A stretch of DNA of 64,000 nt from Eledone cirrhosa (GCA_964016885.1 OZ024742.1:185504001-185568000), one strand, 5' to 3'; counted from the first letter of the stretch, positions 11,405-63,655 are shown. Notes: a model not told the origin generated them from the sequence alone. Translations and numbers: made by a program.

Positions 11405-11895
11405 TAAGTATGTACACGTACATACATATATGTATACAGACGTACAGTAGTATGTATATATATATATATACATACATGCACACATATATATATATGTACG
11501 TATGGATTCACCGAACATTTATTATAATGCTCGGTGTGTTTGTAAACAAACATCCCGTGTTAAGCCGTAGTGTCTAGCAACGATCGTTGCTCGTTTGTTC
11601 AACACTGACAAAGGAACGCTGTACTAGTTTCAAGCTTATTAGCTATCGTCAGCAACGTATACCTTCCTGCCAGATTGTTGAACGTATATACTTACCTTAT
11701 GTATATTAACGGCTGAGTAGCCCAATTTACATATCGAGTGGGTTAATCGGCCGGGTGCACCGAAAACGATAAACGGAAAAATGAAACGAAATTTCATTTC
11801 CCACTCTTAGTACGGCTGTTACTTAAATATAAGTATGTATACGTACATACATATATGTATACAGACGTACAGTAGTATGTATATATATATATACA
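11405..11895 (-). mobile_element. HHR-bearing Penelope-LTR/retrozyme-like cassette (unit ~425 bp, partly tandem)
   Basis: 11405-11470 recurs at 11830-11895. Same family as 35651-36292. Contains the HHR at 11616-11658. Confidence 0.65.
11616..11658 (-). ncRNA. Minimal type-I hammerhead ribozyme
   Basis: Minus strand ACGTTG-CTGACGA-T-AGCT-AATA-AGCT-T-GAAAC-TA-GTA|CAGCGT: 6-bp stem I, 4-bp stem II, palindromic ACTAGT stem III, GUA cleavage triplet. Confidence 0.75.
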
Positions 11896-12119
11896 TCGTT
11901 TTAATAAATATTGAATCATACAGGTGATTGAACACCTACCCTGCAACATGTAGGTCAATTTATATTACCCAGGACATTAAAAAATCACATTAAAATGAGA
12001 TAATCACTACAAATGACATAATTAGATTAAATGGAAGATACTAAGTACACGGTGTTGTCTACACTCATAAATACATACATACACACACACATTTCTATAC
12101 ATATATATATGTATGAATG

Positions 12120-15100
12120 TTTAGCAGCTAAATAGGAGTAACCCCATGGTGGTCCGTAGGTGTGCTAGAAATAGCAGCTAAATAGAGAGAACTTCATTGT
12201 GGTCTATAGGTGTGCAACAAATTGCAGCTAAATAGGGAAACATCATGGTAGTCCATAGGTGTGCTAGAAATAGCAGCTAAATAGAGAGAACTTCATTGTG
12301 GTCTATAGGTGTGCAACAAATTGCAGCTAAATAGGGAAACATCATGGTAGTCCATAGGTGTGCTAAAAATAGCCGTTAAATAGGGGAAACCTCATGATGG
12401 TTCATAGGTGTGGTAGCAATAGCAGCTACATCAGCTAAGCAGGGAAAACCTCATGGTGGTGCGTAGGTGTGCTAAAAATAGCAGCTAAATAGGGAGTGAA
12501 CTCAGGGTTGTCCATAGTTGTGCTAGGAATAGCAGCTACATCAACTAAACATGGGGAACATCATTGTGGTCCAAAGGTGTGCTAGAAATAGCAGCCAAAT
12601 AAAGGAAATCATGGTGATCCATAGGTGTGCCAGAAATGGCAGCTAAATGGGGGAACCTAATGGCGGTGCCTAGGTGTGCTAGAAATAGCACTTAGATAGA
12701 AGGAACCTCATTATGGTCCATAGGTGTGCTAGAAATAGCAGCTTCATCAGCTAAACCTAATTGTGGTCTATAGGTGTGCTAGAAATGGCAGCCAAATAAG
12801 GGTTACCTCATAGTGGTCTATAACAGAGCTAGAAATAGCAGCTGCATAGGAGGTACCACATGGTGGTCCCTAGGTGTGTTAGAAATAGCAGCTAAATAGG
12901 GGGGAATCTCATTGTGGTACAGAAATATCAGCTACATTAGCTAAACAGAGGGAACATCATGGTGGTACATAGAAGTGCAAGAAATAGCACCTAAATAGGG
13001 GGTACCTTAGGGTGGTTCATAGGTGTGCTACAGATAGCAGCTAAACAGGTGTGCCAGAAATGGTGGCTAAATGGGGGGGGGGGGGGCTCATGGTGGTTCT
13101 TAGGTGTGCTAGAAATAGCACCTAAATAGGAAGCTCATTGTGGTCCATAGGTGTGCTTGAAATAGCAGTTACATCGCTAAACAGGGGGAAAATCATGGTG
13201 GCCCAAAGGTGTGCTAGAAATAACAGCTAATTGTAGTCTATAGAAGAGTAGCTAAATTGGAGGTACCTCATGGAGGTCAATAGGCGTGCTAGAACTATCA
13301 GCTAAATCAGCTAAACAGGTGGGAAATCATGGTGGTCCAAAGGTGTGCTAGAAATAACAGCTAAATAGGGAGAACCTCATAGTGGTTGATAGATGTGCTA
13401 GAAATAACAACTAAAATGGGGGTACCTCATGGTTGACCATAGGTGTGCTAGAAATAGCAGCTAAATAGGGAAACATCTCATGGTGGTCCTTAGGTGTGGT
13501 AGAAATAGAAGCTAAATAGGGAAACATTATGGTGGTACATAGTTGTGCTAGAAATATCAGCTTAATAACAGGAACCGCATTGTAGTCCAAAGGTGCCCTA
13601 GAAATAGCAGCTACATCAGCTAAATTGGGGGAACCTCATGGTGGTTTATATGTGTGCTAGAAATAGCAGCTAAATTAGAGGTACGTCAGAGTTGTCCCTA
13701 GGTGTGCAAGAAATAGCAGCTAAATCAGGGGAGCTTCATGGTGGTTCATAATAATGCTAGAAATAGCAGGTACTAAACAGGGGGAACATCATGGTGTATC
13801 ATAGCTGTGCTAGAAATAGCAGCTAAATAGGGAAACCACATGTGTGTCAATAGATGTGCCAGAAATGGCAACTAAATGGGGGAATATTTTGGTGGTCCAT
13901 GTGTGCTAGAAATAGCAGCTAAATAGAAGGAACCTCATTATGATCCATATGTGTGCTAGAATTAGCAGTTATATCAGCTGAACAGGGGGGGGGGGACCTA
14001 CTTGTGGTATATAGGTGTGTTAGAAATAGCAGCTAAATAGGGTGAATCTCATGGTGGTCCATTGGTATGCAAGAAATAGCACCTAAATAGGGGGTACCTC
14101 AGGGTGGTCGACAGGTGTGCTACAAATAGCAGCTAAATAGAGGGAACCTCCTGGTGGTCCAAAGGTCTGCTAGAAATAGCAGCTAAATAGAGGGAACCGT
14201 ATAATGATTCATAGATGTACTAGAAATAGCAGCTAAAAGGGGGGGGGGAAACTCATGGTGGTCAATATACATGCTAAAAATAGCAGCTACATCAGCTAAA
14301 CAGGGGGGGGGGTCATGGTGGTCCAAAGGTGTGATAGAAATAGCAGCTAAATAGGGGGAACCTCATAATGGTTCATAGATGTGCTAGAAATAGCAGCTAA
14401 AATGGGGGAACCTCATAATGGTTCATAGATGTGTTAGAAATAGCAGATAAAAAGGGGGAACCTCATGGTGGTCCATAGGCGTGCTGGAAATAGCAACTAA
14501 ATAGGGAAACATTATGGTGGTTCATAGGTGTGCTTGAAATATCAGCTAAATAGGGGGAACCTCATTGTAGTCGAAAGGTGTGCTAAAAATAGCAGCAACA
14601 TCAACTAAACAGAGGGAATCTCATGGTGGTTATATGTGTGCTATAACAGCTAAATAGATGAAACACAGAGTGGTTTATAGAAGTAGTAGATATAGAAGCT
14701 AAATCGGAGATACGTCAAGGTTGTCCCTAGGTGTGAAAGAAATAGCAGCTAAATAGAGAGAAATCTCATTGTGGCCCGTAGGTGTGGTAGAAATAGCAGT
14801 TAAATGGCGGTTTCTAATTGTGCTAGAAAAAGCAGCTAAACAGGGAAACATCATGGTGGTCCATAGGTGTGCTAGAAATAGCAGCTACATCAGCGAAACA
14901 GAGGAAACTAACTGTGGTCTGTAGGTGTGCTAGAAATAACAGCAGAATAAGTGTTACTTCATGGTAATCTATAGAAGAGCTAGAACTAGTAGCTAAATAG
15001 GAGGTACCACATGGGGTGTGTGCAAGAAATAGCAGCTACATCAGCTAACAGGAGAAAACTCATCGTCGACCATAGGTGTGTTAGAAATAGCAGCTAATAG

Positions 15101-17295
15101 GGTGAATCTCATGGTAGTCCATTGGTATGGAAGAAATAGCAGCTAAATAGGGGGAAATCTCATGGTGGTTGCGAAATAGTAGCTACATCAGCTAAACAGT
15201 GGTAACATCATGGTGATCCATAGGTTTTTCGAAATAGCAGCTAAATAGGAGGAACCTCATAGAAATCGCAGCTAAATAGGGGTAAAAACAGGGTGATCCA
15301 TAGGCGTGCTTGAAATAGCAGCTAAATAGGGGTACCTCATGGTGATTGATTGTTGTGCTAGAAATAGCAGCTACATCAGCTAAATTTGGAGAACCTCATG
15401 GTGGTCTATATGTGTGCTAGAAATAGCAGCTAAATCGGAGGTATGTCAGAGTTGTCCCTAGGTGTGCAAGAAATAGCAGCTAAATCAGGGGAACTTCATG
15501 CTGGTCCATAATAATACTAGAAATACCAGGTACATCAGTTAAACAGGAGGAACATCATTGAGGATCATAGCTGTGCTAGAATTAGCAGTTACATCAGCTG
15601 AACAGGGGGAACCTAATTGTGGTCTATAGGTGTGTTAGAAATAGCAGCTAAATAGGGTGAATCTCATGGTGGTCTATTGGTATGCAAGAAATGGCACCTA
15701 AATAGGGGGTACCTCAGGGTGGTCCACAGCTAAATAGAAGGAAACTCATGGTGGTCCAAAGCTGTGTTAGAAATAGCAGCTAAATAGAAGGAACCGCATA
15801 ATGGTTTAAAGATGTACTAGAAATAGCAGCTAAAAAGAGGGAATCTCATGGTGGTCCATAGGCGTGTTGGAAAATAGCAACTAAATAGGGAAACCTTATG
15901 GTGGTACATAGGTGTGCTTCAAATATCAGCTAAATAGGAGGAACCTCATTGTAGTCGAAAGGCAGCTAAATAGGGGTACCTCATGGTTGTTGTGCTAGAA
16001 TTAGCAGCTACATCACCTAAACAGGCGGAAACCTTAAGGTGTGCTAGAAATAGCAGCTAAATACGTGGCACCACATGGTGGTCTATAAAAGTGCTAGAAA
16101 TAGAAGCTAATAGAAGGTACGTCAATAGGGGGAAATCCCATGGTGGTCCAGAAATAGCAGCTACATCAATTAATCAGAGGCAACCTCATGGTGGTCCATA
16201 GGTCTGTTAGAAATAGCAGCTAAATAGGAGGAACCTCATGGTGGACCATATGTATTCTAGAAATAGCAGCTAAATAGGAGCAAAACTTATGGTGGTCCAT
16301 AGGTGTAGTAGAAATGGCGGCTAAATAGGGTAACCTCATAGTGGTCTATAGGTGTGCTAGAAATAGCAGTTAAATAAGGTATCTCATTGTGGTCTATAGG
16401 TGGGCTAGAAATAGCAGCTAAATACAGGTACCTCAAAGTGGTCCATAGGTGTGCTAGAATTAGCAGCTACATCAGCTAAACAGAGGGAAACACATGGTGG
16501 TTCATAGGTGGGCTAGAAATAGCATCTAAATTGGGGGAACATGATAGTGGTCCATAAGTGTGAAGGAAATAGCAGCTAAATAGGACAAACCTCATGGTGG
16601 CTTATATGTGTACTAGATATAACAGCTACACTTGCTAAACAGTGGGAAACTCAGTGTGTTCCATTGGTGTATTAGAAATAGCAGCTAAATACGAGATACC
16701 TCATGGTGGCACATAGAAGTGCTAGAAATAGCAGCTACATACGGGAACGTTATGAAGGTCCTTAGGTGTGCTATAAATAGCAACTAAATAGAGGAAAACA
16801 CATTGTTGGTCATATGTGTGCTAGAAATAGCTGCTAAATAGGGAGAACATCTTGGTGGTCCATGGATGTGCTAGAAATAGCAGCTACATAGGAGGTACCT
16901 CATGGTTGTCAGTAGTTGTGCTAGAAATTGCAGCCAAATACACGAACCTCATTGTAGTCTATAGGTTTACTAGAAATATCAACTACATCAACTAAACAGG
17001 GGGAACCTGATGGTGGTCCATAGGTATGCTAGAAATAGCAGTTAAATAAGGGAAATCTCATGGTGGTCCATAGGTGTGCTAGAAATTGCATCTACATCAG
17101 CTATGCAGGGGAAACCTTAGGGTGGTTTTTAGGTGTGTTAGAAATAGGAGCTACATCAGCTAAGCTGGCTGAACCTTATTGTGGTCCATAGGTGTTCTAG
17201 ATGTACCATCTACATTAGCTAAATATCATGGTGGTTCAGAAGTTTGCTTGAAGTAGCAGCTAAATACGGGAACCTCATGGTAGTCCTTAGGTGTA
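12120..17295. repeat. Minisatellite array, ~45-55-bp diverged unit (AGGTGTGCTAGAAATAGCAGCTAAATAGGGGGAACCTCATGGTGGTCCAT)
   Basis: About 100 tandem copies over 5.2 kb. Some units carry an ACATCAGCT insertion. Confidence 0.95.
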
Positions 17296-19921: not shown

Positions 19922-19969
<48 letters not shown>

Positions 19970-20752: not shown

Positions 20753-20755
<3 letters not shown>

Positions 20756-21060
20756 GTAGGAGGTGAGTTTTATTGTAGTACAATAAAGCAATGCAGATAT
20801 CGGATAAGAAGCACTCTACAGTTTGTAGGACTGGAGTATACATAATATATAAGAACAAAAGATGGTTAAAAGAGTTCCATGTATTTTATTATGCGCATTT
20901 ATGTTGATTTAAAACTGAACTATCCACAAGTGTTTTTTAACCTTCATATCATGTCCTCCTGTTTTATCTGATGAAAACACAAATATTATTGCATGATGAT
21001 ATTTGTTTTTGAAATGCGCATAATAAAATACATGGAACTCTTTTAACCATCTTTTGTTCT

Positions 21061-21070
<10 letters not shown>
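20753..21070 (+). mobile_element. HHR-bearing cassette with inverted arm, in (TA)n
   Basis: 20847-20900 is the reverse complement of 21012-21070. Shares its ends with 34358-35095. A solo left arm occurs at 5855-5957. Confidence 0.75.
20950..21034 (+). ncRNA. Type-I hammerhead ribozyme (family shared with 34975-35059)
   Basis: TTTTAT-CTGATGA-AAACACAAATATTAT-TGCATG-ATGATATTTGTTTTT-GAAA-TGCGCA-TA|ATAAAA. Palindromic ATGCGCAT stem III, AUA triplet, stem I extendable by CATG/CATG. Confidence 0.75.
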
Positions 21071-21094
<24 letters not shown>

Positions 21095-30090: not shown

Positions 30091-30485
30091 ATTATATATA
30101 TATGACATATGTGTGTGTGTGTGTGGGGGGGGGGACCCTTCAGTTGTGTCAACGATAAAATGTGTCACGATAAAATGCACTTGGTAGAATGTGGAATCAT
30201 ATGTAAGTGAGATGTGAACCATCAGTCTAGCTGGGAAAGAGGACATTAAATGAAGATGATGATGACGATGATATATATATATATATCATACCTGTTTAGC
30301 ATGCATTTTTCTATGCTTGCATGGGTCAAAGAGGTCATCCGTGTTGAGAGACAAGTCTGACAGAACTGTAAATTTAGTCAGGGTTTTTACAGCTGGATGC
30401 CCTTCGTTACACCAACCACATTTACATATATATACATATAATACATTGAAAGTCTCCAAACAAAAATGTGCATAACAAAACTTAC

Positions 30486-31950: not shown

Positions 31951-32239
31951 TATATATATATATGTAAAAAAGAAAATTTCGCTCTACATGACTGAATACA
32001 ATAAATGTAATCTGAGTTTAGCGAATATTAATAATTATTTCTACTTTAGGCACAAGGCCAGCAATAAACCAGTGTATTACTGGTACTTTATTTTATCGAC
32101 CCCGTAAGGATGAAAGGCAAAGTCAATTAGCGAATATTAATAATAACATTCGATTCATTTGCAATTATGCAAACAAGCCTCAATTTTATAGCCATGTCAG
32201 TAGAATGAGCCCCTCATTCTTGCTCTTATGTTGGCATGC

Positions 32240-32301
32240 GAACAGAACTGCAGACAATAATGTTTCTGGGTATCACCCTTCATCAGTACAGATCACTGTT
32301 C
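32240..32301 (-). ncRNA. Type-I hammerhead ribozyme with extended, internally looped stem I
   Basis: GAACAG-TGAT-CTGTA-CTGATGA-A-GGGT-GAT-ACCC-A-GAA-ACA-TTAT-TGT-C|TGCAG-TT-CTGTTC. GUC triplet. Confidence 0.8.
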
Positions 32302-32579
32302 ACCTGCCAAACTGTCAGAGCTAGTGAAAATATATGCTATTTTCAAAAATACACAGTGACTGATCAGCCTGATTTGCATATTAGCAGACTGACTGATCAG
32401 TCAGATCTGCATATTAGCAGATCCACTGATCAACCAGATTTGCATATCACCAGGCAGGCCAGTCAGTTTCCTGTATATGAGCGATAAATGGACGGCTTTG
32501 CCAAATTCAAATAAAAAAGAAAGTTTCGCTCTACATGGCTGAATACAATAAATGTAATCTGAGTTTTTCGAATATTAAT

Positions 32580-32765
32580 TATTGTTTCTACCTTTGGCAC
32601 AAGGCCAGCAATTACCCAGTGTATTACTGGTACTTTATCGATCCCGTAAGGATGAAAGGCAAAGTTAACCTCGGCGGGATTTGAACTCAGACTATAAAGG
32701 GCCATAACTCTTTGCTGCAAAGCATGGCGTCCGACCCTCTACCAATACTGCCAATCCACCGCCCT
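32580..32765 (-). mobile_element. Full-length tRNA-derived SINE with Nin-domain-like core and target-site duplication
   Basis: A box TGGCAGTATTGGTAGA, B box GAGTTCAAATCCC, core GCCTTTCATCCTTACGGG..GATAAAGTACCAG and TSD TTCGAATATTAAT. Other copies at ~7300-7375, 10380-10487, 17346-17470, 20600-20720, 22850-22950, 29060-29265 and 32035-32128. Confidence 0.85.
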
Positions 32766-33217: not shown

Positions 33218-33223
<6 letters not shown>

Positions 33224-33407
33224 TTAAAGGTCCAAATTAATTGCGTCCGTAGGTGGTGTGCCGATATGAGCACTCGATGCTCATGTGGAGCAGAGTATCA
33301 ATAATGATATATAAGGGAACCAAGAATCAGTGTTGCATCATATCCATATTTAATTACATATTACATATGTTTCATTGTCGATAAGCTCGAGGAACGATCG
33401 ATTAATG

Positions 33408-33446
<39 letters not shown>

Positions 33447-33687
33447 TTAACAACTATGTTATCATATATCTGAGGAGCTTCCGATTCCAGAGTCAGGATC
33501 GATCATTAATCGATCGTTCCTCGAGCTTATCGACAGTAAAACATATGTAATATGTAATTAAATATGGATATGATGCACCACTGATTCTTGGTTCCCTTAT
33601 ATATCATTATTGATACTCTGCTCCACACGAGCATCGAGTGCTCATATCGGCACACCACCTACGGACGCAATTAATTTGCACCTTTAA

Positions 33688-33693
<6 letters not shown>
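33218..33693. repeat. ~190-bp inverted repeat pair around (TA)n containing a degenerate HHR
   Basis: 33218-33410 is the reverse complement of 33502-33693. Confidence 0.9.
33464..33555 (+). ncRNA. Degenerate type-I hammerhead (GAAA mutated to AAAA)
   Basis: ATATAT-CTGAGGA-[long insert]-AAAAC-ATAT-GTA|ATATGT. The inverted arm keeps GAAACATATGTA, which shows the ancestral core. Confidence 0.55.
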
Positions 33694-33771
<78 letters not shown>

Positions 33772-33800
33772 AGATCCGAAGGCATGGTATAAATTTCAAA

Positions 33801-33890
33801 TCATTTTAATCACGACACATGTTTCAATAAGGGATAGATCGATCGTGTGGTCATGATCGATTGTCACTGATCTCATCAGGTGAATAATGA
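33801..33890 (-). ncRNA. Type-I hammerhead ribozyme (left arm of the 33763-34138 palindrome)
   Basis: TCATTATTCAC-CTGATGA-[long imperfect stem II with ATCGATC/GATCGAT]-GAAAC-ATGT-GTC|GTGATTAAAATGA. Confidence 0.65.
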
Positions 33891-34012
33891 AAAGTCTTCA
33901 AGAGTCTATGAGAGAGGAAAAACTAACGATGTTCACTCACTATGGGGAACAAAACTCTAGTGAGTGAACATCGTTAGTTTTTCCTCCCTCATATGAAAGA
34001 TTTGAAAACTTT

Positions 34013-34102
34013 TCATTATTCACCTGATGAGATCAGTGATAATCGATCATGACCACTCCATCGATCTATGCCTTATTGAAACATGTATCGTGATTAAAAT
34101 GA
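34013..34102 (+). ncRNA. Type-I hammerhead motif (right arm of the palindrome; GUC changed to AUC)
   Basis: TCAC-CTGATGA...GAAACATGTATC|GTGA. Inverted copy of 33801-33890. Confidence 0.55.
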
Positions 34103-34268
34103 ATGGAAATTTATACCATGCCTTGGGATCTTTATTTTGATACAAATACTCCGTTTTACATTATCTAGCTGTTCTCTTAAATATAATTGGAGATATACAA
34201 AAGCGTGGAGAACTTAATATTGCCAACAAAAGTTTATTGGACCGTATGACACAATCAATAATACACCT

Positions 34269-34357
<89 letters not shown>

Positions 34358-34361
<4 letters not shown>

Positions 34362-35094
34362 GGAGGTGAGTTTTATTGTAGTACAATAAAGCAATGCAGA
34401 TATCGGATAAGAAGCACTCTACAGTTTGTGGGACTGGAGTATACATAATATATAAGAACAAAAGAACATAGAATCAATTATTACATAATACAACACATTC
34501 TTACTCTATATCACCTTATAAAAATCCTTCGTAAACATATACAATTTTTGACGTTAGAATATTCATCCGCAATTCATTATTCTTTTCTCCCTATCATCTA
34601 ACTCATTATTCTCAATACATATTAACTCCTTCTCTTTCTTCGCACATATTTTTCTCTTTTTCTCTTCGTTAATTTTCAAATTCTTTTAATTTACACATTA
34701 TCTTCCAACGGTTTTCAACCTCTCTATGTAAAACAATATATCTTTTTCAGTTATAAAAACTATCTCTCTCTCTCTCTATCACCCATCTCTCCTCCTATCT
34801 CATCCTTCCTCACTATACTCCTCCCTCTCCACCTTCACTCTCATCTCCTCTTTTTTTCATCCCCCCCCCACTCTAAATAAAATATTTTTCCCAATATCAC
34901 ACATCAATCTAAAACTACTTCTCGTATGTTGATTTAAAACTGAACTATCCACAAGTGTTTTTTAGCCTTCATATCATGTCCTCCTGTTTTATCTGATGAA
35001 AACACAAATATTATTGCAGGATGATATTTGTTTTTGAAATGCGCATAATAAAATACATGGAATTCCTTTAACCATCTTTTGTTCTTATATATTA

Positions 35095-35095: not shown

Positions 35096-35125
<30 letters not shown>

Positions 35126-35219
35126 CTAGCTTGACCACAGCCACATAGCGATTCTTAGCCATTTTTGAATCTAATTTTGGCGCGATCGGGTTGGAAAATT
35201 AGATGTCTGATTTTGAGTT

Positions 35220-35298
35220 TGTCTCCTGATGAATCCTAACTCAAGACATTCCTATTATTTGGATGTCTAAAAATACGGATGAAACCCTGGTAGAGATA
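35220..35298 (+). ncRNA. Type-I hammerhead ribozyme
   Basis: TGTCTC-CTGATGA-ATCC...AGACATTC..GGATGTCT...GGAT-GAAAC-CCTG-GTA|GAGATA: 6-bp stem I, stem II ATCC/GGAT with a distal hairpin, GUA triplet. Confidence 0.75.
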
Positions 35299-35578
35299 TA
35301 ATTACGGTATGTACACATTTCTTCTAAGTTTAATTTTACACCTAATTGTGTATGGTTGATGATATATTTAGTCAGTTTCTACATGCTGTCGAAATGTTGG
35401 ATAAATAATCTATTGGGGCCACCGCGAAGAGGCCATTTTCGATTATTTGTCGGAGATTTCTTCATAAGAGCCTTTCTTCTTATAGCTTGGTCTAATTGAT
35501 TTTTATATGGTTAATTATGCTAATTAGAAGAGGAAATAGTATATATTTTATCTAATAATTCTAAGGACATGATTTATG

Positions 35579-35650
<72 letters not shown>

Positions 35651-35654
<4 letters not shown>

Positions 35655-36289
35655 GGAAAAAAGGAAACGAAATTTCAATTATCACTCTTAGTACGGCTGT
35701 TACTTAAATATAAGTATGTATACGTACATACATATATGTATACAGACGTACAGTAGTATGCATATATATATATACATACATGCACACATATATATATGTA
35801 CGTATGGATTCACCGAACATTTATTATAATGCTCGGTGTGTTTGTAAACAAACATCCCGAATTTTGTAACAAACATCCCGAATGTTGTAAACAAACATCC
35901 CGAATTTTTTCCGTTTATCATTTTCGGTACCCCGGCCGATTAACTCACTCGATATGCAAATTAGGCTGCTCAGCCGTTAATATGCATAAGGAAAGTATAT
36001 ACTTTCAGACGTTCAACCATCTGGCAGGAAGGTATACTTTGCTGACGATAGCTAATAAACTTGAAACTAGTACAGCGTTCCTTTGTCGGTGTTGAACAAA
36101 TGAGCAACGATGGTTGCTTGACACTGTACGGCTTAATTCGGGATGTTTGTTTACAAACACACCGAGCATTATAATAAATGTTCGGTGAATCCATACGTAC
36201 ATATATATATATATATGTGTGCATGTATGTATATATATATATGCATACTACTGTACGTCTGTATACATATATGTATGTACGTATACATA

Positions 36290-36292
<3 letters not shown>
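35651..36292. mobile_element. Inverted-arm cassette of the 11405-11895 family, with HHR motif at 36036-36078 (+)
   Basis: 35710-35860 is inverted relative to 36138-36292. TTG-CTGACGA-TAGCTAATAAACTT-GAAAC-TA-GTA|CAGCGT, with one stem I and one stem II mutation. Confidence 0.75.
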
Positions 36293-36355
<63 letters not shown>

Positions 36356-36423: not shown

Positions 36424-36479
<56 letters not shown>

Positions 36480-36559
36480 AAACTGGAACGGGAACAAAAA
36501 CAGAGAGACTACAAACAAAGGTTTATTAGTTTCACGCGCTTGAGAGTGGAGGGGGGGGG

Positions 36560-36592
36560 GCGTTTCAGGCATAAGCCCTTCTTCAGGAGAAA
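36560..36592 (-). ncRNA. Partial hammerhead core (Penelope-LTR type)
   Basis: CTGAAGA-A-GGGC-TTAT-GCCT-GAAACG on the minus strand. The cleavage site and stem I 3' strand are missing. Confidence 0.4.
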
Positions 36593-36957
36593 AGTGGGTG
36601 GGAAGAGAGTTCCGAGGAGGGTGTGTGGGGGAGTGGTGGAGAGACATTTAGAAAAAAAGAGGGGGGGAGAAAAGGGAGGAAAAATGGTTGAATGGGTACA
36701 TATAAAAATAAAAATAAACATAAAGATAAACAAGTGGTGGAAGGGTGTGGGGCGTGTAGGGATGGTGGCCGGTGGAGTAGGGAGAGGGAGGCGGGGGTCC
36801 GAGCGGGGAGGGCTGAAGGTGGTGTTTGTGTATGTATGTAGGTGTACGTGTGTATGTGAATGTGAGAGTTGGGGAAGAACGAGGTTCCATGTTCAGGAAA
36901 CGGTGTGTGTGGGGGGTGGGGTGTAGGTCGATGTGTGCGTATATATATATATATACA

Positions 36958-54100: not shown

Positions 54101-57100
54101 TGGTGTATAGACGGTGTGGTGTGTAGGCTGTGTGGTGTGTAGATGGTGTGGTGTGTAGGGTGTGTGGTGTGTAGGCTGTGTGGTGTGTAGATGGTATGTA
54201 GGTTGTGTGGTGTGTAGACGGTGTGGTGTATAGGCTGTGTGGTGTGTAGGCGGTGTGATGTGTAGGCTGTGTGGTGTGTAGGCGGCTGTGTGGTGTGTAG
54301 ATGGTGTGGTGTGTAGGCTGTGTGGTGTGTAGGCTGTATGGTGTGTAGGCTGTGTGGTGTGTAGACGGTGCGCTGTGTAGGCTGTGTGGTGTGTAGATGG
54401 TGTGGTGTGTAGGCTGTGTGGTGTGTAGGCTGTGTGGTGTGTAGATGGTGTGGTGTGTAGGCTGTGTGGTGTGTAGATGGTGTGGTGTGTAGACTGTGTG
54501 GTGTGTAGACGGTGTGGTGTGTAGGCTGTGTGTTGTGTAGACGGTGTCGTGTGTAGGCTGTGTGGTGTGTAGATGGTGTGGTGTGTAGGCTGTGTGGTGT
54601 GTAGGCTGTGGGGTGTTTAGATGGTATGTAGGTTGTGTTGTGTGTAGACGGTGTGGTGTGTAGGCTGTGTGGTGCGTAGATGGTGTGTAGGCTGTGTGGT
54701 GTATAGACGGTGTGGTGTGTAGGCTGTGTGGTGTGTAGATGGTGTGGTGTGTAGGGTGTGTGGTGTGTAGGCTGTGTGGTGTGTAGATGGTATGTAGGTT
54801 GTGTGGTGTGTAGACGGTGTGGTGTATAGGCTGTGTGGTGTGTAGACGGTGTGATGTGTAGGCTGTGTGGTGTGTAGGCGGCTGTGTGGTGTGTAGATGG
54901 TGTGGTGTGTAGGCTGTGTGGTGTGTAGGCTGTATGGTGTGTAGGCTGTGTGGTGTGTAGACGGTGCGCTGTGTAGGCTGTGTGGTGTGTAGATGGTGTG
55001 GTGTGTAGGCTGTGTGGTGTGTAGGCTGTGTTGTGTGTAGATGGTGTGGTGTGTAGGCTGTGTGGTGTGTAGATGGTGTGGTGTGTAGACTGTGTGGTGT
55101 GTAGACGGTGTGGTGTGTAGGCTGTGTGGTGTGTAGACCGTGTGGTGTGTAGGCTGTGTGGTGTGTAGGATGTGTGGTGTGTAGACGGTGTGGTGTGTAG
55201 ACGGTGTGGTGTGTAGGCTATGTGGTGTGTAGGCGGTGTGGTGTGTAGGCTGTGTGGTGTGTAGGATGTGTGGTGTGTAGGCGGTGTGGTGTGTAGACGG
55301 TGTGGTGTGTAGGCTGTGTGGTCTGTAGACGATGTGGTGTGTAGGCTGTGTGGTGTGTAGACGGTGTGGTGTGTAGGCTGTGTGGTGTGTAGACGGTGTG
55401 GTGTGTAGGCTGTGTGGTGTGTAGGCTGTGTGGTGTGTAGACGGTGTGGTGTGTGGGCTGTGTGGTGTGTGGCTGTGTGGTGTGTAGACGGCGTGGTTTG
55501 TAGGCTGTGTGGTGTGTAGATGGTGTGGTGTGTAGACGGTGTGGTGTGTAGGCTGTGTGGTGTGTAGGCTGTGTGGTGTGTAGATGGTGTGGTGTGTAGA
55601 CTGTGTGGTGTGTAGACGGTGTGGTGTGTAGGCTGTTTGTTGTGTAGACGGTGTCGTGTGTAGGCTGTGTGGTGTGTAGATGGTGTGGTGTGTAGGCTGT
55701 GTGGTGTGTAGGCTGTGTGGTGTGTAGATGGTGTGGTGTGTAGGCTGTGTGGTGTGTAGGCTGTATGGTGTGTAGGCTGTGTGGTGTGTAGACGGTGTGG
55801 TGTGTAGGCTGTGTGGTGTATAGACGGTGTGGTGTGTAGGCTGTGTGGTGTGTAGATGGTGTGGTGTGTAGGGTGTGTGGTGTGTAGGCTGTGTGGTGTG
55901 TAGATGGTATGTAGGTTGTGTGGTGTGTAGACGGTGTGGTGTATAGGCTGTGTGGTGTGTAGGCGGTGTGATGTGTAGGCTGTGTGGTGTGTAGGCGGCT
56001 GTGTGGTGTGTAGATGGTGTGGTGTGTAGGCTGTGTGGTGTGTAGGCTGTATGGTGTGTAGGCTGTGTGGTGTGTAGACGGTGCGCTGTGTAGGCTGTGT
56101 GGTGTGTAGATGGTGTGGTGTGTAGGCTGTGTGGTGTGTAGGCTGTGTGGTGTGTAGATGGTGTGGTGTGTAGGCTGTGTGGTGTGTAGATGGTGTGGTG
56201 TGTAGACTGTGTGGTGTGTAGACGGTGTGGTGTGTAGGCTGTGTGTTGTGTAGACGGTGTCGTGTGTAGGCTGTGTGGTGTGTAGATGGTGTGGTGTGTA
56301 GGCTGTGTGGTGTGTAGGCTGTGTGGTGTTTAGATGGTATGTAGGTTGTGTTGTGTGTAGACGGTGTGGTGTGTAGGCTGTGTGGTGCGTAGATGGTGTG
56401 TAGGCTGTGTGGTGTATAGACGGTGTGGTGTGTAGGCTGTGTGGTGTGTAGATGGTGTGGTGTGTAGGGTGTGTGGTGTGTAGGCTGTGTGGTGTGTAGA
56501 TGGTATGTAGGTTGTGTGGTGTGTAGACGGTGTGGTGTATAGGCTGTGTGGTGTGTAGACGGTGTGATGTGTAGGCTGTGTGGTGTGTAGGCGGCTGTGT
56601 GGTGTGTAGATGGTGTGGTGTGTAGGCTGTGTGGTGTGTAGGCTGTATGGTGTGTAGGCTGTGTGGTGTGTAGACGGTGCGCTGTGTAGGCTGTGTGGTG
56701 TGTAGATGGTGTGGTGTGTAGGCTGTGTGGTGTGTAGGCTGTGTTGTGTGTAGATGGTGTGGTGTGTAGGCTGTGTGGTGTGTAGATGGTGTGGTGTGTA
56801 GACTGTGTGGTGTGTAGACGGTGTGGTGTGTAGGCTGTGTGTTGTGTAGACGGTGTCGTGTGTAGGCTGTGTGGTGTGTAGATGGTGTGGTGTGTAGGCT
56901 GTGTGGTGTGTAGGCTGTGTGGTGTTTAGATGGTATGTAGGTTGTGTTGTGTGTAGACGGTGTGGTGTGTAGGCTGTGTGGTGCGTAGATGGTGTGTAGG
57001 CTGTGTGGTGTGTAGACGGTGTTGTGTGTAGGCTGTGTGGTGTGTAGACGGTGTGGTGTGTAGGCTGTGTGGTGTGTAGGCTGTGTGGTGTGTAGATGGT

Positions 57101-57660
57101 GTGGTGTGTAGGCTGTGTGGTGTGTAGGCTGTATGGTGTGTAGGCTGTGTGGTGTGTAGACGGTGTGGTGTGTAGGCTGTGTGGTGTATAGACGGTGTGG
57201 CGTGTAGGCTGTGTGGTGTGTAGATGGTGTGTTGCGTAGATGGTGTGGTGTGTAGGCTGTGTGGTGTGTAGACGGTGTGGTGTGTTGGCTGTGTGGTGTG
57301 TACGTGTTGTGTGTGTAGACGGTGTAGTGTGTAGGCTGTGTGGTGTGTAGGCTGTGTGGTGTGTAGACGGTGTGGTGTGTAGCCTGTGTTGTGTGTAGGT
57401 GGTTTGGTGTGTAGGTGGTGTGTAGGTGGTGTGGTGTGTAGATGGTGTGGCGTGTAGATGTGTGTATGTGTACGTGTATGTATGTTTGTATAGATGTGGT
57501 GTGTAGGTTGTGTGTAGGTGGTGAGTAGACATGCATTGTTTCGTGGTGTGTATAGATGTAGGTGTGTGTGTTTGGTGTGTGACTGTTGTGTGACAGTAGG
57601 TCTGTGTTGTGTGTGTGTTTGTGTATATGGTTATATGTGTGATGTTGTGAGTGGGTGCGG
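39120..57660. repeat. GT-rich satellite, 15-bp units GTGTGGTGTGTAG(GCT/ACG/ATG), with higher-order repeats
   Basis: About 18.5 kb. Homogeneous core ~40000-57400 with degenerate (GGTGT)n edges. Confidence 0.97.
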
Positions 57661-57737: not shown

Positions 57738-57848
57738 GCGTAAAGAGAGTAAATAGATACTTAAATAAAAGGAAAAAATAAGCAAAATACATTATGTATT
57801 TTGCTTAATGTTCCTTTTATTTAAGTATCTATTTACTCGCTTTACTCT
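57738..57848. repeat. Near-perfect hairpin/inverted repeat at the left end of a probable Penelope-like cassette (57715-59190)
   Basis: GTAAAGAGAGTAAATAGATACTTAAATAAAAGGAA..AAGCAAAATACA / TGTATTTTGCTT..TTCCTTTTATTTAAGTATCTATTTACTCGCTTTAC. Confidence 0.8.
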
Positions 57849-59074
57849 CATTATATACTTATTGTGCTCATTAGCACACGACACTATAATATTACTCTCT
57901 GTATTATTATACCTGTTTATCTTTATTCACTCCCCCTACCCACCTAAGAACCACACTACCTATAACCCGGACTAACTGTGGACTAAATATAGTCTTTTTG
58001 CGCATTTCATCGGGTTTTACCAATTTCAACCTCACATCACGGGTGTGAATATATAATAATCGTTTGGTAACACGCGATGATCCGACAGATGTGACGGCTT
58101 TCCCGGCTGCGCGCCGGGCGCCCGGGTGTATGAGCCTTCCTTGAGTGCTTGGAAAAACAAATTTCCCCTTCTTTCGGTAAACGAAATTACTCGGAACGGC
58201 TGCTTTGCCCCGAGGCCCACCGCGCCGCCGGTTTTGACCGCCAAATAGTACCTTTAAATTTCTAGGCTTCATCATAACTATTAGCTGTATCATGCCTATC
58301 TCTACTGGCACGTAAATAAATCCCCCTCCTGTGTGAATTAATAGTATTCATTTGGTATAGACGATGGCCTGACGGCGATGGTGGACTTCCCACTAATACA
58401 CCCGACGCCTAAAACAGTTACATTCCTGGAGTGCTCGGAAAAATTAATTTCTATTTCTTTCGCTAGACGATATCACTCGGAACGGCTGATACGTGGTTAG
58501 GAAGGGCTGGCCAGGATCTGCAGTCGTCGCTGATTATTGACTGCTAAACAAGGGCTTAATCTTTACTCTATATCCTACCCTGAAAACTTATTGAGAATAT
58601 CTATAATACACTTAAACCTTTTCATAAAAGACTCTTTCTGTAAATTCTTTAACTAAATCTCACAACCCAAACCTTAAACCTTATTTCTCTTATTTTTCTA
58701 ATTTCATCCTATAACTAGAAACATAAGTTTAACATTCCTAATTGCTAACCGAAATTTCTGTCCTCACATTATACCATACAGTCGCCCACTATATATGCCT
58801 TTGTTAAAGATATATGTGCTTTGGAAAAAACATTTTTCGCGGCAATTTTCTAGCACGCACGGTCAGCCTGATTGTGGCATGACCTTTTCTCTTTGACGGA
58901 GAGGTAGTAGTACATTATAAGCTTACGCCTCCTCACCAGATGGTCATAAGTAGACTTAATAATCAACACTCAGGGCGACCGACTGAGGTAGAAGCTGCTA
59001 AATGGTCGGTCGTCCTCTTGTCTCTGGTTTTCAGCCCCATGGATTTTATGTTATATTCCTTTGTTATATTTCGA

Positions 59075-59132
59075 ATACCTGATGATATCACCGGATTCAT
59101 ACTGAACCCGGTGATTGAAATGATCATAGTAT
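59075..59132 (+). ncRNA. Type-I hammerhead ribozyme
   Basis: ATAC-CTGATGA-T-ATCACCGG-ATTCATACTGAAC-CCGGTGAT-T-GAAA-TGATCA-TA|GTAT. Palindromic ATGATCAT stem III. Confidence 0.75.
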
Positions 59133-59361
59133 AATAAACCTTTTAAGGATTTACACCAGTCCAGCCTGTTATTTTATAATATTTTATAATATATATATAT
59201 AGGGCGGGTAAAATTCCCGAGATCCATGGACGAGTCCTCTCCAGCGGTCTCTGTCCCTCATCATCGCTGCCATGTCCTGCGTCTCCAAGAGACCAGTGTG
59301 TTTGTCCTTAGGACATCAACATCTGTCACCTTGGTCTCTCTCTTCCAGTGTGTCCATGCAG

Positions 59362-59394
<33 letters not shown>

Positions 59395-59397
<3 letters not shown>

Positions 59398-60370
59398 AAT
59401 TAGCATATCTACCAACATATATATATATACAGATGCATACCTATGCTAGCAAATATATATGTTTTGTCTTAGTAACTTTGTGGTTCAATGCAAGGGGATA
59501 CAGAACAATTATATGAATGACGTAAAATAAGAAAATTATAAAAATTAACTTACTTACTAAAATTTCACTCCAACTAATTAGTTTCTAAAAGGGAATAAAC
59601 ATGGTTTTCAAATGGAAAGCATGGAGAAGCCGTTTCGTCATCAGGAAGTCTGTTTTCAGCTAAGATACCTGGCGATGCGTGGACACAGGGAACTTATACA
59701 AAAATAATTCAGTGGATGGAAAAAAGCAAGCGTGGACTAAATTCCAAGACATTGAAAAAATCACTGTCTACTTGGTCGGTGGCAAATTCAAAAGAATTAA
59801 TCACGTGACATCGAGGTTAATCAGTGAGGAGTGGGGTGTTAAAAAGACAAAACCTATATATTTGCTAGCATAGCTGTGCATCTGTATATATATATATGTT
59901 GGTAGATATACTAATTCTTTATAATTAACTCCAAATTATTTTGTTGAGCAAAAATTTGCCAGAACTGCTACTATAGTTCATAGTAACGGTTTGGCTACTG
60001 TCTTTTTAACACCCCCACTCCTCACTGATTATGTTTAGATATTATTTTAATTTCTATGTTGTCTATGTTACCGTCATGTTGTTGTCTGGCGTGTTCGTAT
60101 AGTACTGAACCGTTTTTTCTTCCTTTTAGTTCCCCCCAGTGTGGGTCTATCCTTTCACCTATGCTACGAGCTGTATGTATGTTGTTGTCATGTTTCTGCA
60201 AGTACCCTCTGTACATCTTATGCTATAGAATACGTTTCTAGTATTACAGTTTATCCGGTGGTTTACATATAATACATTTCCTATTAGTACAGTGGGTTTT
60301 CTTAAAAGGGTATGTTTTGCTGAACAGGGATTTTATGGTGGTTCCTGGCTTTTCTACCACCTTAATCTTT
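59395..60370 (-). mobile_element. Penelope-like retroelement remnant: frameshifted GIY-YIG endonuclease plus rearranged, inverted pseudo-LTR
   Basis: Minus strand 60370-60020: KIKVVEKPGTTIKSLFSKTYPFKKTHCTNRKCIICK / NCNTRNVFYSIRCTEGTC..TYI / TARSIGERIDPH..SVLYEHARQQH..IEIKII / SEEWG. Inverted repeats 59395-59470/59846-59920 and 59818-59850/59999-60030. Confidence 0.8.
59567..59649 (-). ncRNA. Degenerate type-I hammerhead in the Penelope pseudo-LTR
   Basis: ACTTC-CTGATGA-[imperfect stem II]-GAAAC-TAATTA-GTT|GGAGT. Palindromic ACTAATTAGT stem III. Confidence 0.55.
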
Positions 60371-60547
60371 ATATATATATAGTGCCAATAACATGGTAGA
60401 AATATGTAAGGTAGAGACTACTTTACAACTTTCGAGTTTGCCGTGTTAAATTTTCAAATGCATATTACTAACAACATAATATGAGGTCAACAAATTCGAC
60501 TCTCTACATGTATTGGTACTTCGAACCTAATGAATATTAATATTAAT

Positions 60548-60732
60548 AATTGTTTCTACTTTTGGCACAAGGCCAGCAATTCCCCAGTGCATTACTGGTA
60601 CTTTATTTTATCGACCCCGTAAGGATGAAAGGCAAAGTCAACCTCGGCGGGATTTGAACTCAGAATTGCAAGGGCCGTAACTCTATTCGTCAAAGCATGG
60701 CGTCCGACACTCTACCGATACTGCCAATTCAC
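60548..60732 (-). mobile_element. tRNA-derived SINE (Nin-domain-like family)
   Basis: Same consensus as 32580-32765. Confidence 0.85.
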
Positions 60733-61027: not shown

Positions 61028-61400
61028 TTGGCAGTATCGGTAGAGGGTTGGACGCCATGCTTTCTAGCATAGTTACGTCCCTTTACAGTCTGAGTTCAAA
61101 TCCCGCCGAGGTTAACTTTGCCTTTCATCCTTACGGGGTCTATAAAATAAAGTACCAGTAATGTACTGGGTTATTGCTGGCCTTGTGCCTAAAGTAGAAA
61201 CAATTATTTGAATGTGGTGGATTGGCAGTATCGGTAGAGGGTCGGACGCCATGCTTTCCAGCATAGTTACGTCCCTTTACGGTCTGAGTTCGAATTCCGC
61301 TGAGGTTAACTTTGCCTTTCATCCTTACGGGGTCGATAAAATAAAGTACCAGTAATGCACTGGGTAATTGCTGGCCTTGTGCCAAAAGTAGAAACAATTA
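61028..61400 (+). mobile_element. Two tandem copies of the tRNA-derived SINE
   Basis: 61028-61207 and 61214-61400, each with A box, B box and core. Confidence 0.85.
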
Positions 61401-61715
61401 TTTAAATGTGTTAAACTGTATTCCTTCTTATATTTCCTGCAAAAAAAAATGCAGTTATGTCTTATGTCCTATGTTGATAATTGCTAATTAACTATTTCCG
61501 ATTGTTTTCATATCCATGTGCTATTGTCAAATCTGTTGAAACAGACGTAGAAATTAAAGAATGAATTTAAGTGGTTAACATTGGTTTTTCTTCATTTCAT
61601 ATATATATATATGTCTCTGTGTGTGTGTGTGTGTGTGTGTGAATACGCATGCGCAGAAACATGACCGTTTCTGCCCATGCGTATTCATACGGTTGTCTTT
61701 CCTTTTCCGTACAAC

Positions 61716-61775
61716 TTCACTCAGACCGAGCTGAAGATCCGCATAAGGTGAAACATTTGTTCTCGGTTTGGTGAA
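61716..61775 (+). ncRNA. Type-I hammerhead ribozyme motif
   Basis: CAGACCGAG-CTGAAGA-T-CC-GCATAA-GG-T-GAAAC-ATTT-GTT|CTCGGTTTG: 9-bp stem I extendable by TTCAC/GTGAA, weak stem II, GUU triplet. Confidence 0.65.
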
Positions 61776-61857
61776 CTAACTGTTGTGGAACTACTTGTAC
61801 CAAACTTGTCCCATGGGCTGAGTGCTCTACCACTACGGATATAACCCTCCAGCGTTC

Positions 61858-61917
<60 letters not shown>

Positions 61918-62349: not shown

Positions 62350-62425
<76 letters not shown>

Positions 62426-62479
62426 CGGCGATGAATTAGTTTTGCGAGGTTTTTTTATATGAAATCGTGTGTCGAAACA

Positions 62480-63470
62480 GATATTGTTATACTTGGGGAG
62501 GGTCATATTTGTGTAATATTGCCAGAATTAATAACAGAACACACTCACTGTTTGGTTGGTTTTCGCTTCTCGCTGTCTTTTATATCTGCGATCTAACTTA
62601 CTCGGTCCTCAATGTTGCGATTGACTGACCGGCGGTCAAAAATAATACAGATACAATATAGACACAAACACATATATATTCTCTTTTACCTGTTTCAGCC
62701 ATCCGGCTGAGGCCATGCTGGGGCACATATATATATAATTTACAAAAATCTTTCGTTGCACATCTGCAACATCGTCAGTGGTGTTATATTCATTGTTCCT
62801 CCTGTTGTGTTGTATGTCTACGCCATTTTTTATTCAGTCTGTCTATATATTTATTTATTTATTTGCTTGTTTGTTTATCTTATTTTATTTTGTCTTCTTT
62901 GCGCATGCGTTTGCGTGTGTGTATAGTGTTATGTGTGATGTGTGACTAGTGTGTATAGTGTTGTGTCTGCTGGGTGACTAGTGTGTGTTTATGTGCTTGT
63001 TGTTATTGTGCTTGTGTATGTATTTATTTATCTTATTTTATTTTATTTTATTTTATTTACTTATTTATACTTCTCTTAGGTCAGTGTTGTTTGTTTGGGT
63101 GTTGTTGTTGTTCCACTCATTCTTTCTGTTTAGCTTTGGTCTTCTAATTTCTATTTCACTGGCCTCTCTGATTTGCCTATCTGCTGGGTCATTCCTATGT
63201 TTAGATATTATTATATCTAACTGACGATGTTGCAGATGTGCAACGAAAGATTTTTGTAAATTATATATATATATATATATATGTGTTTGTGTCTATATTG
63301 TATCTGTATTATTTTTGACCGCCGGTCAGTCAATGGCAACATTGAGGACCGAGTAAGTTAGATCGCAGATATAAAAGACAGCGAGAAGCGAAAACCAACC
63401 AAACAGTGAGTGTGTTCTGTTATTAATTCTGGCAATATTACGCAAATATGACCCTCCCCAAGTATAACAA
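62480..63470. repeat. Nested inverted repeats with two truncated HHR cores (62745-62780 minus; 63221-63255 plus)
   Basis: 62482-62670 is inverted relative to 63283-63472, and 62737-62779 relative to 63220-63263. Core CTGACGA-T-GTTGCA-GATG-TGCAAC-GAAAG. Confidence 0.7.
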
Positions 63471-63612
63471 TATATATATATATATATATATATATTGTTA
63501 TACTTTGGGAGGCTGATGTTGCCAATAAGAAACACACGCACCAGTTGCTTTTATTATAAATTTCCAGTTGGTTGGTTGGTTGGTTCCACAACCGGATGGT
63601 TGTTCATATATT

Positions 63613-63655
63613 GTCAAAGTTCTTTCGTCACACATTCCGTGACCTCATCAGTGAC
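63613..63655 (-). ncRNA. Minimal type-I hammerhead ribozyme
   Basis: GTCA-CTGATGA-G-GTCAC-GGAATGT-GTGAC-GAAAG-AA-CTT|TGAC. Confidence 0.65.

Follow-up and report, generated by a model that had tools for sequence, protein, structure and literature searches.

Introduction

Type-I hammerhead ribozymes are carried by the pseudo-long terminal repeats (pLTRs) of Penelope-like elements (PLEs; PMC4209133), and nearly all elements of the Hydra clade of PLEs insert in (TA)n and bear 3' hammerheads, including one from Octopus bimaculoides (PMC8557442). PLE insertions are known to show a one-sided tail, an inverted copy, 5' truncation, and a partly tandem arrangement (PMC8557442, PMC3846280), and a Poseidon PLE from Anolis cuts and extends both strands in vitro, using uncleaved RNA and two internal starts that bound the tail (PMC11167929). 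For the hammerhead repeats termed retrozymes in animals, a 2020 review states that no motif reveals the mobilizing retrotransposon and describes the role of the minimal PLE hammerhead as unknown (PMC7761336); their mobilization by PLEs has been argued from co-occurrence and pLTR homology, rather than from insertion ends (bioRxiv 10.64898/2026.07.22.740005). In this work, we compared these systems with a 64,000-nucleotide (nt) stretch of the 3.0-Gb genome of Eledone cirrhosa (OZ024742.1:185504001-185568000), hereafter the window, in which a sequence-only reading had proposed a dense collection of hammerheads in (TA)n-embedded cassettes between positions 11616 and 63655.

Our analyses indicate that type-I hammerheads lie at the 3' ends of six PLE families, as well as in five families of units devoid of an open reading frame (ORF), which are likely copied in trans by PLE enzymes into (TA)n. 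The diverse set of microsatellite-targeted, ribozyme-bearing retroelements proposed by the sequence-only reading is borne out by these six PLE-linked families and five ORF-less units, all with (TA)n downstream; the reading named the right class, without telling autonomous 3' ends apart from ORF-less units. Its novelty was overrated, as hammerheads, their place in PLEs, the (TA)n preference, and octopus Hydra elements are already in print, for example in the (TA)n-targeting, hammerhead-bearing Hydra-clade element of O. bimaculoides (PMC8557442). What our analysis contributes is the scale of the motifs, the five ORF-less families, and a reciprocal two-site footprint that ties these units to PLE enzymes.

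Results and discussion

Hammerhead motifs in the window and in the genome

The 16 listed hammerhead sites fall into 12 families of hammerhead repeats (F1 to F12), of which F11 and F12 are sisters, in keeping with the roughly 10 unrelated flanks that had been proposed. Their copies in the window are as follows (sites 1 and 2 are the 3' end sites described under the insertion footprint; L followed by a number denotes a genomic locus).

11399..11896, minus strand: F1 copy, ORF-less ~430-nt unit, 1.1 units; intact hammerhead 11616-11658, core 11652, with palindromic helix III ACUAGU and U.U at the stem II base; 3' end at site 1
20754..21068, plus strand: F2, predicted 3' end of a Hydra-type PLE; a tail arm in inverted orientation (20754-20900) precedes the forward piece; the hammerhead (20960-21030, core 20968) is intact; TA runs flank either side
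31965..32582, minus strand: F3 copy comprising about 1.2 units of an ORF-less ~440-nt unit, split at 32036-32130 by a piece of another repeat; the hammerhead occupies 32248-32291 (core 32286), and the 3' end, at site 2, abuts TA
33219..33692, plus strand: F4 copy; (TA)16 separates the inverted arm (33219-33411) from the forward arm, and the hammerhead (33464-33554, core 33470) has lost G12
33765..34271, no single strand: F5, predicted Hydra-type PLE 3' end; two head-to-head arms, tail confined to the plus arm; hammerheads 33810-33883 (minus, intact) and 34020-34093 (plus, helix III mismatch)
34358..35093, plus strand: F2 copy; inverted tail arm 34358-34467 from site 2, forward 3' untranslated region (UTR) to site 1; intact hammerhead 34985-35055, core 34993
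35120..35584, plus strand: F6 copy comprising 0.7 of an ORF-less ~660-nt unit; the hammerhead (35220-35298, core 35226) has one private helix III mismatch; 3' end at site 1
35649..36299, plus strand: F1 copy; inverted arm 35649-35863 from site 2, forward arm 35906-36299 to site 1; hammerhead 36036-36078, core 36042, weakened stems
36476..36939, minus strand: F7, predicted 3' end of a decayed Neptune-type PLE; the hammerhead is a remnant (36560-36592, core 36586) that lacks both UH and stem I
57740..59184, plus strand: F8 copy, ORF-less 2,077-nt unit, 0.68 unit; a short 5' piece is inverted; the hammerhead (59075-59132, core 59079) is intact, and the 3' end lies at site 1
59391..60031, minus strand: F9 copy of an ORF-less ~530-nt unit, with a main arm (59391-59849) that stops at site 2 and an inverted arm at 59838-60031; the hammerhead (59567-59649, core 59644) is intact and has the 12-nt palindrome AACUAAUUAGUU
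60031..60372, minus strand: broken GIY-YIG endonuclease fragment of F11/F12 type (tblastn, 45% identity, E 9e-25), abutting the F9 copy
61662..61863, plus strand: F10, predicted 3' end of a Hydra-type PLE; in the hammerhead (61726-61766, core 61731), U.U flanks a stem II of 2 bp
62425..63469, no single strand: F11, predicted Nematis-like PLE 3' end, sister of F12; long arm 62425-63220 (minus, core 62778) and short arm 63221-63469 (plus, core 63221), 99% complementary over 199 nt; stem I weak
63496..64000, minus strand: F12 (locus L225), containing the strict-descriptor core 63651

At all 16 places (16/16), the CUGANGA core was present on the expected strand, and a (TA)6+ run lay within 360 nt downstream of every one, in agreement with the CUGANGA...GAAA...UH motifs proposed at about 15 sites and with their (TA)n-bounded islands. 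The proposed type-I topology stood for nine sites (11652-, 20968+, 32286-, 33879-, 34993+, 35226+, 59079+, 59644-, and 63651-), which passed a strict descriptor comprising a stem I of at least 4 base pairs (bp), a stem II of at least 3 bp, a paired even-length helix III insert (one mismatch allowed), and UH. The other seven, which are decayed copies, failed this descriptor: 33470+ (F4) has lost G12 in the window copy; 34024+ and 36042+ have broken pairs; 61731+ (F10) has a stem II of only 2 bp; 62778- (F11) has a stem I of 2-3 bp; 63221+ (F11) has lost its 5' stem I arm at the inversion junction; and 36586- (F7) has neither UH nor stem I in the window copy, so that this hammerhead is not intact. 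As a control, the non-satellite part of the window was dinucleotide-shuffled 100 times, and the strict descriptor gave a mean of 0.01 and a maximum of 1 match, versus nine in the window; a first version of the descriptor gave 8 matches against 0.07-0.2 in shuffles, with 0/200 shuffles reaching 8. The non-satellite part holds 33 cores, namely the 16 listed and about 17 others, the latter corresponding to the chance level of about 18. Two parts of the proposal did not hold. The interval 11616-63655 is not one feature, as about 23 kb of it consists of two satellite arrays (about 12.1-17.3 kb and 39.2-57.5 kb), and the density is not exceptional, being only about two-fold the genome average (9 strict motifs seen, 4.7 expected from the genome sample described below).

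The genome was searched with 11 of the 12 families (F11 was excluded as a separate query), yielding 1,175-4,117 first-look candidates each, which are lower bounds and not copy numbers; 40 of these were scored per family, and the family loci, being the best matches to the window copy, form a sample biased to long copies. Cores were intact in most family copies (12/18 for F4), with the exception of F7, where a complete core was present in 6/20. At several of the defects in the window, genomic copies have retained the intact letter. The CCCTGG of the hammerhead at 35226 is private to the window copy, with CCATGG in 22/24 core-intact genomic copies, and the hammerhead at 32286 has CATTATTG in the window and CATTAGTG in 11/15 genomic copies.

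For abundance, we sampled 79 arbitrary 10-kb stretches at round-number positions on 24 contigs (790 kb). These contained 58 strict motifs in 34 stretches, forming 17 sequence clusters, as compared with 0-1 in shuffles (20). Helix III was fully paired in 49/58 (G-U allowed), 33 being strict palindromes, under a descriptor that tolerates one mismatch, and 50/57 of the motifs had (TA)6+ within 500 nt downstream, as opposed to 32% of random positions, which upholds the suggested (TA)n enrichment. Extrapolation of the 0.73 motifs per 10 kb gives about 220,000 per genome (bootstrap 148,000-296,000), and 304 motifs, which form 29 clusters, are present in all of our loci together (1.3 Mb, enriched for the searched families). 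In the literature, Schistosoma has been credited with about 2,000 plus 1,300 motifs, coelacanth with 4,000, and Xenopus with 9,000 (PMC4209133), and there are also reports of >6,000 for a coral and of 126,247 for axolotl (genome, 28.2 Gb); as the descriptors differ, the comparison with our extrapolation is rough. In the literature searched, with most subscription journals and Repbase outside its coverage, neither hammerhead counts nor retrozymes were found reported for cephalopods.

The pLTR hammerheads (PMC4209133) resemble those described here in being of type I with a short palindromic helix III, in forming many families per genome, in an extra nucleotide before stem II (here in F11 and F12), in opposite-strand pairs 100-700 bp apart, and in the prevalence of truncated copies. 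They differ in their numbers (2,000-9,000 per genome under another descriptor, versus about 220,000 by extrapolation), whereas here several families have 30-60-nt stem II loops and 6-8-nt helix III inserts, and many lack G10.1-C11.1.

Some of the evidence would suit motifs that arose by chance in sequence rich in AT and palindromes, or that are structural relics and never cleave: the Rfam search that had been suggested returned zero hammerhead matches in the window at the gathering score, the predicted folds of individual motifs are little more stable than those of shuffles (z +0.6 to -4.0), and 7/16 window copies fail the strict descriptor. At E<=1, 115 Rfam matches over five loci included no hammerhead family, the E-value matches being TA/TG-rich microRNA models. 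Nevertheless, we consider this explanation barely credible, and a chance origin of the motifs is excluded by comparison with shuffled sequence (58 versus 0-1), by the occurrence of the same core and pairing in 17 unrelated clusters, and by two-sided changes that keep stems II and III. The latter were evaluated in 28 F2-related motifs chosen by core pattern and not by pairing, where 96.6% of cells were paired (35-58% in slid controls) and 49 two-sided changes were found, versus 14.2 in column shuffles (0/500 reach this number), a shuffle that takes no account of relatedness; they fall on 7 pairs in stems II and III. The covariation among genomic copies that the reading had anticipated is present in this set, and self-cleavage of the motifs is predicted. 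That standard annotation would miss such elements is true for Rfam and Pfam, whereas octopus PLE families are annotated by repeat pipelines (PMC13282606).

Autonomous Penelope-like families

By their upstream coding sequence, F2, F5, F7, F10, F11, and F12 are assigned as 3' ends of PLEs with a reverse transcriptase (RT) and a GIY-YIG endonuclease. In F2, F5, F10, F11, and F12, the endonuclease ends 70-1,300 nt upstream of the hammerhead, in the same sense and with no (TA)7+ run between. Upstream of F2 there is a 0.8-1-kb 3' UTR, preceded by GIY-YIG with a CxCX5C linker and by an RT with DKT and ITMGASD...YRDDGL; the same type of ORF lies 167 nt upstream of F10 (L240), and the F5 ORF lies 1.3 kb upstream (L237). 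The linkers, read by eye, are CNCPIKNKC (F2), CNCRNTATC (F5), and CSCRKPEAC (F10), and a by-eye motif comparison (CxCX5C, no CCHH, and (TA)n targets, with DKT in F2) suggests that these three families match the Hydra clade. Like the published Hydra elements (PMC8557442), they would combine a C-terminal GIY-YIG, CxCX5C, DKT, a divergent RT4(B), and a 3' hammerhead often with U.U at the stem II base, (TA)n targets, an inverted 5' copy, and a one-sided tail; here, the F2 and F5 3' UTRs measure 0.8-1.3 kb, and the Hydra-1_Obim hammerhead is, by eye, unlike any of our families in sequence. Among F2 copies, 14/29 have an inverted arm, and the tail is on one arm only in 13.

The F12 ORF begins in the window and runs past its edge (L225), and another copy (L239) has 559 open codons; the best homolog of its protein is an RT-domain protein labeled Octopus vulgaris (68%). 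Its short CX4CxxC linker, compared by eye with supplement figures S1-S2 of PMC8557442, resembles that of Nematis. F11 has an endonuclease of the F12 kind 300 nt upstream, the only PLE coding part seen for this family. The F7 copies have 1.9-2.1 kb in common, including decayed RT and endonuclease sequence, and appear Neptune-like from linker and RT4(B) motifs compared by eye. Earlier clade labels, 'Neptune' for F2 and 'Poseidon' for F7, were dropped after the motifs were compared with the PMC8557442 supplement. Pfam matched GIY-YIG at E 0.059 for the F12 protein only, with no match for 7 other PLE protein pieces.

A tblastn screen for parent ORFs over 1.9 Mb of loci tied endonuclease ends to F2, F5, F10, F11, F12, and two F2-related hammerheads, and to none of F1, F3, F6, or F8. 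For F9, the link was seen in a single case, the window copy abutting the fragment at 60031-60372; F9 as the 3' end of this fragment was rejected, as the F9 copy starts there with its inverted arm and the link occurs in one insertion only. The copies of F4 have ~300-450 nt of upstream sequence in common, with no PLE ORF in 18 loci.

Two further observations concern these proteins. The F2 protein (L224 4497-5787 and L221 4107-4995) has an Asn-rich linker between RT and endonuclease, reminiscent of the N-rich inserts of rotifer PLEs (PMC3846280), and L237 and L227 have similar low-complexity linkers. Another Neptune-type PLE family, with none in the window, has largely open RT and GIY-YIG frames at L228 1-1310 and L238 2330-4130.

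ORF-less units

Followed upstream from the hammerhead, the sequence of F1, F3, F6, F9, and F8 leads into the tail of the element itself, giving self-closing units of 430, 439, 663, 529, and 2,077 nt, respectively. None of the five has a stop-free frame of >126 codons or a tblastn match below E 0.4 to the seven PLE protein pieces. Copies longer than one unit make up 104/175 (F1, 32/38; F6, 24/36; F9, 26/40; F3, 16/35; F8, 6/26), with head-to-tail dimers or trimers in F1, F6, F9, and F8, and up to 1.7 units in F3. Their flanks are (TA)n, in which a target-site duplication is unreadable.

We weighed whether all of the families might be plain PLE 3' ends (pLTRs), the ORF-less units being duplicated pLTR pieces whose parents were missed. 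Six of the 12 families are such ends, and truncated, tandem, and inverted insertions with a one-sided tail are familiar for PLEs (PMC8557442, PMC3846280). However, in 175 copies on many chromosomes the upstream sequence joins the tail of the same unit at a constant junction, with no ORF, sampling of the same kind found an ORF at once for F2 and F12, and F8 has a non-coding period of 2,077 nt with neighbors that are 99.6% identical; this explanation is accordingly an unlikely one.

The anatomy of the five families is, as judged from sequence, like that of non-LTR retrozymes (PMC7229834; bioRxiv 10.64898/2026.07.22.740005) in the absence of an ORF, a single type-I hammerhead per unit, head-to-tail arrangement, low G+C content (GC), and a stable predicted circular fold, and in both cases PLEs are present in the same genome, where they have been proposed as mobilizers (bioRxiv 10.64898/2026.07.22.740005). 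Retrozyme units of 170-400 nt with canonical hammerheads (PMC7229834) contrast with the 430-2,077 nt and minimal, PLE-type hammerheads found here, although the preprint (bioRxiv 10.64898/2026.07.22.740005) allows 51-972 nt and minimal motifs; a further difference is that the copies here are mostly dispersed, of 1-2 units, in (TA)n, and with the inversion and tail footprint of PLEs. Classical retrozymes or satellites, amplified via rolling circles with a non-PLE RT or in tandem at the DNA level, would account for the unit sizes, the GC of 33-37%, the tandem arrangement in 7/24 F1 insertions, and the strong circular folds (natural monomers versus shuffles, z -7.5 for F1, -4.1 for F9, and -2.4 for F6), and LINE-type (long interspersed nuclear element) RT remnants do occur in the window. 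Most ORF-less copies are, however, dispersed pieces of 0.6-2 units with fixed 3' ends and random 5' ends; they show head-to-head arms and a one-sided tail, the PLE signature, just as F2 does; and no poly(A) tails were seen at their junctions. We therefore regard this origin as very unlikely, and even less probable than missed PLE parents.

F1 was also looked for in sequencing runs. Words of F1 were present in the runs of three organisms (27-71% of words), with no RNA run on record containing F1, and one contig in another organism's run joins the F1 unit end to its start, so the head-to-tail form also exists in another organism. When contigs of four sequencing runs were compared with F1, the single candidate RNA run gave no cover, whereas cover was high in a run of undeclared kind, a result with no bearing on expression.

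Within the F8 unit (L231, ~nt 950-1500 after the core), which is otherwise AT-rich, two GC-rich internal repeats of ~150 nt are 73% alike; they have no Rfam match and could be a promoter or a structured RNA. At L252 8630-10000, there is a sixth ORF-less family, with four head-to-tail 311-nt units bearing identical hammerheads, an inverted fifth motif, and a circular fold of z -5.2.

The insertion footprint

Each ORF-less family has two fixed 3' end sites downstream of its hammerhead, and 162/175 main ends lie within 10 nt of one of them. The sites are 251/306 nt from the core in F1, 179/213 in F3, 365/468 in F6, 108/252 in F8, and 135/250 in F9, and about 105/192 in the autonomous F2. A 5'-side inverted arm was present in 89 copies, with both outer ends at a site in 62; in 57 of these 62, the two arms ended at different sites, and in 5 at the same site (P 1.5e-12). 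The autonomous F2 used different sites in 13/13 cases, with one unassigned. All ten sites of the ORF-less families coincide with a 3-6-nt TA-phase run, and such runs span 12-21% of the units.

The inverted arm holds at least 25 nt absent from the main arm in 20/80 pairs, which indicates that it was not copied from the main arm and that an RNA template is required for each arm; for these pairs, the inverted arm thus cannot have come solely from the first cDNA copied by fold-back. In 54 pairs, the median difference was 3.4% between arms versus 4.3% with other copies, which fits a single source RNA, and also gene conversion. Where inverted arms reach the nearest cleavage site, 38/41 pass through it, so the template was uncleaved or re-ligated RNA. 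A pile-up of 5' ends at the upstream unit's cleavage site (17 events per 1,501 nt at risk versus 76 per 19,721; P 3e-4 in a first pass) fell to 15/1,472 after two doubtful copies were dropped, with a nominal P of 0.002 that becomes about 0.05 when corrected for window choice (21/400 simulations). Another window (+102 to +143) is equally enriched in 5' ends, 30/173 copies continue beyond the site, and no 5'-end excess is seen there for inverted arms, so the excess is at most a hint of cleavage.

The closest experimental parallel is the Poseidon PLE (PMC11167929), which likewise has two internal starts downstream of the hammerhead, acts on both strands, and uses unprocessed RNA. Its starts lie in an AC-rich stem-loop, a short tail apart, and are non-homologous to the target, whereas the sites described here are 30-145 nt apart, at UA motifs matching (TA)n, and are used reciprocally. 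In the literature searched, whose coverage was incomplete, we found no report of reciprocal two-site use, of TA microhomology, or of such a footprint in ORF-less units, and none of twin priming in PLEs, most subscription journals being outside that coverage.

A proposed model for trans-mobilization

The footprint that five ORF-less families share with F2, two-site, reciprocal, and TA-primed, constitutes direct genomic evidence for trans-mobilization by PLEs, and thousands of dispersed copies preserve the insertion ends. In the model that we favor, a PLE protein, supplied by some PLE clade of the same genome, would bind the RNA near its 3' hammerhead, and its GIY-YIG domain would cut both strands of (TA)n. 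The RT would then start internally, at either of the fixed UA motifs that lie 60-400 nt beyond the cleavage site in the RNA and probably pair with the TA primer; with both cut ends priming, one at site 1 and the other at site 2, head-to-head arms with a one-sided tail would result. Synthesis would pass the hammerhead, often for more than one unit, on an uncleaved multimer or a re-ligated circle, and random 5' truncation would leave short islands. ORF-less RNAs, if expressed, would contribute cis-elements alone, their copies of more than one unit arising from tandem transcripts or circles. The hammerheads may cleave slowly as dimers via the palindromic helix III, or with help from protein, freeing or circularizing the RNA, and cleavage would be dispensable at the copied site. 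Dimer cleavage at low rates has been described for related motifs (PMC4209133; the dimer result via the review PMC6765202), as has protein help (PMC11167929).

Several observations weigh against this model. Covariation within F1 alone is thin (one pair), and the stems of F7, F10, and F11 are weak or lost in most copies, so that some families spread with a doubtful ribozyme. The ORF-less units have no detectable sequence in common with one another, and no autonomous partner was matched for any of them in a search limited to the 1.9 Mb of loci. The end sites were read off the same copies on which they were then tested, with four duplicate loci skipped; 27/89 inverted copies have an end at neither site; and creep of alignment ends into the TA flanks may inflate the microhomology. 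Finally, the start of the Poseidon PLE in vitro is not homologous to the cut DNA and shows no strand difference (PMC11167929), and it is thus unlike the microhomology and reciprocity proposed here.

A bolder, genome-level extension remains tentative, and we place it somewhat short of an even chance. It holds that ~2 x 10^5 hammerheads (70 per Mb) are the largest set yet counted, that a third or more of them may reside in protein-less circular-RNA parasites of up to 2 kb that hijack Penelope enzymes, and that the insertion ends may record twin priming by a dimeric RT-endonuclease, each half at a different UA motif. If true, this reading would account for inverted arms and a one-sided tail in all PLE insertions and would name PLEs as the mobilizers of animal retrozymes. 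For target-primed reverse transcription in vitro, the shared footprint predicts that each strand starts at a different site. With at least 29 clusters in 1.3 Mb, the motifs also amount to an extensive natural collection of hammerhead variants that is missed by Rfam.

Other sequences in the window

The window is repeat sequence, intergenic or intronic, with 57 TA runs of at least 6 units. Broken remnants of LINE-type RT and endonuclease occur at 68-2430 (minus), 6156-6575 (plus), and 20909-21238 (minus), with an RVT_1 match (E 2e-18) at 731-1771, and the F2 copy at 20754-21068 is an insertion adjoining the last of these. The best named matches of the retroelement proteins in the window are from Octopus vulgaris (68%, F12) and Argonauta (38%). 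On the minus strand at 30480-30810, there is an open frame, without a Pfam or PDB match, whose first ~110 codons resemble a protein-coding exon; if this exon is real, the element cluster at 32-37 kb would lie in or near a host gene.

A palindromic island of 74 nt at 36352-36425 has a TA run on either side; similar sequence also lies beside F4 and F10 copies (L106 and L117), and the island may be a lone tail from another PLE family. An abundant ~190-nt repeat, which we take to be SINE-like (short interspersed nuclear element), has copies at 61028-61410, 60540-60682, 32036-32130, and 32583-32700, in tandem as well as inverted, and is also inserted within F3 and F4 copies at fixed AT-rich spots. 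The first satellite array (12122-17294) is a 5-kb minisatellite with a ~50-nt unit and higher periods of 59/100/149 nt, and the second (39155-57457) is an 18.3-kb TG-rich satellite with a period of about 16 and a strong strand skew, in which several minus-strand frames are open as low-complexity His/Thr/Pro runs.

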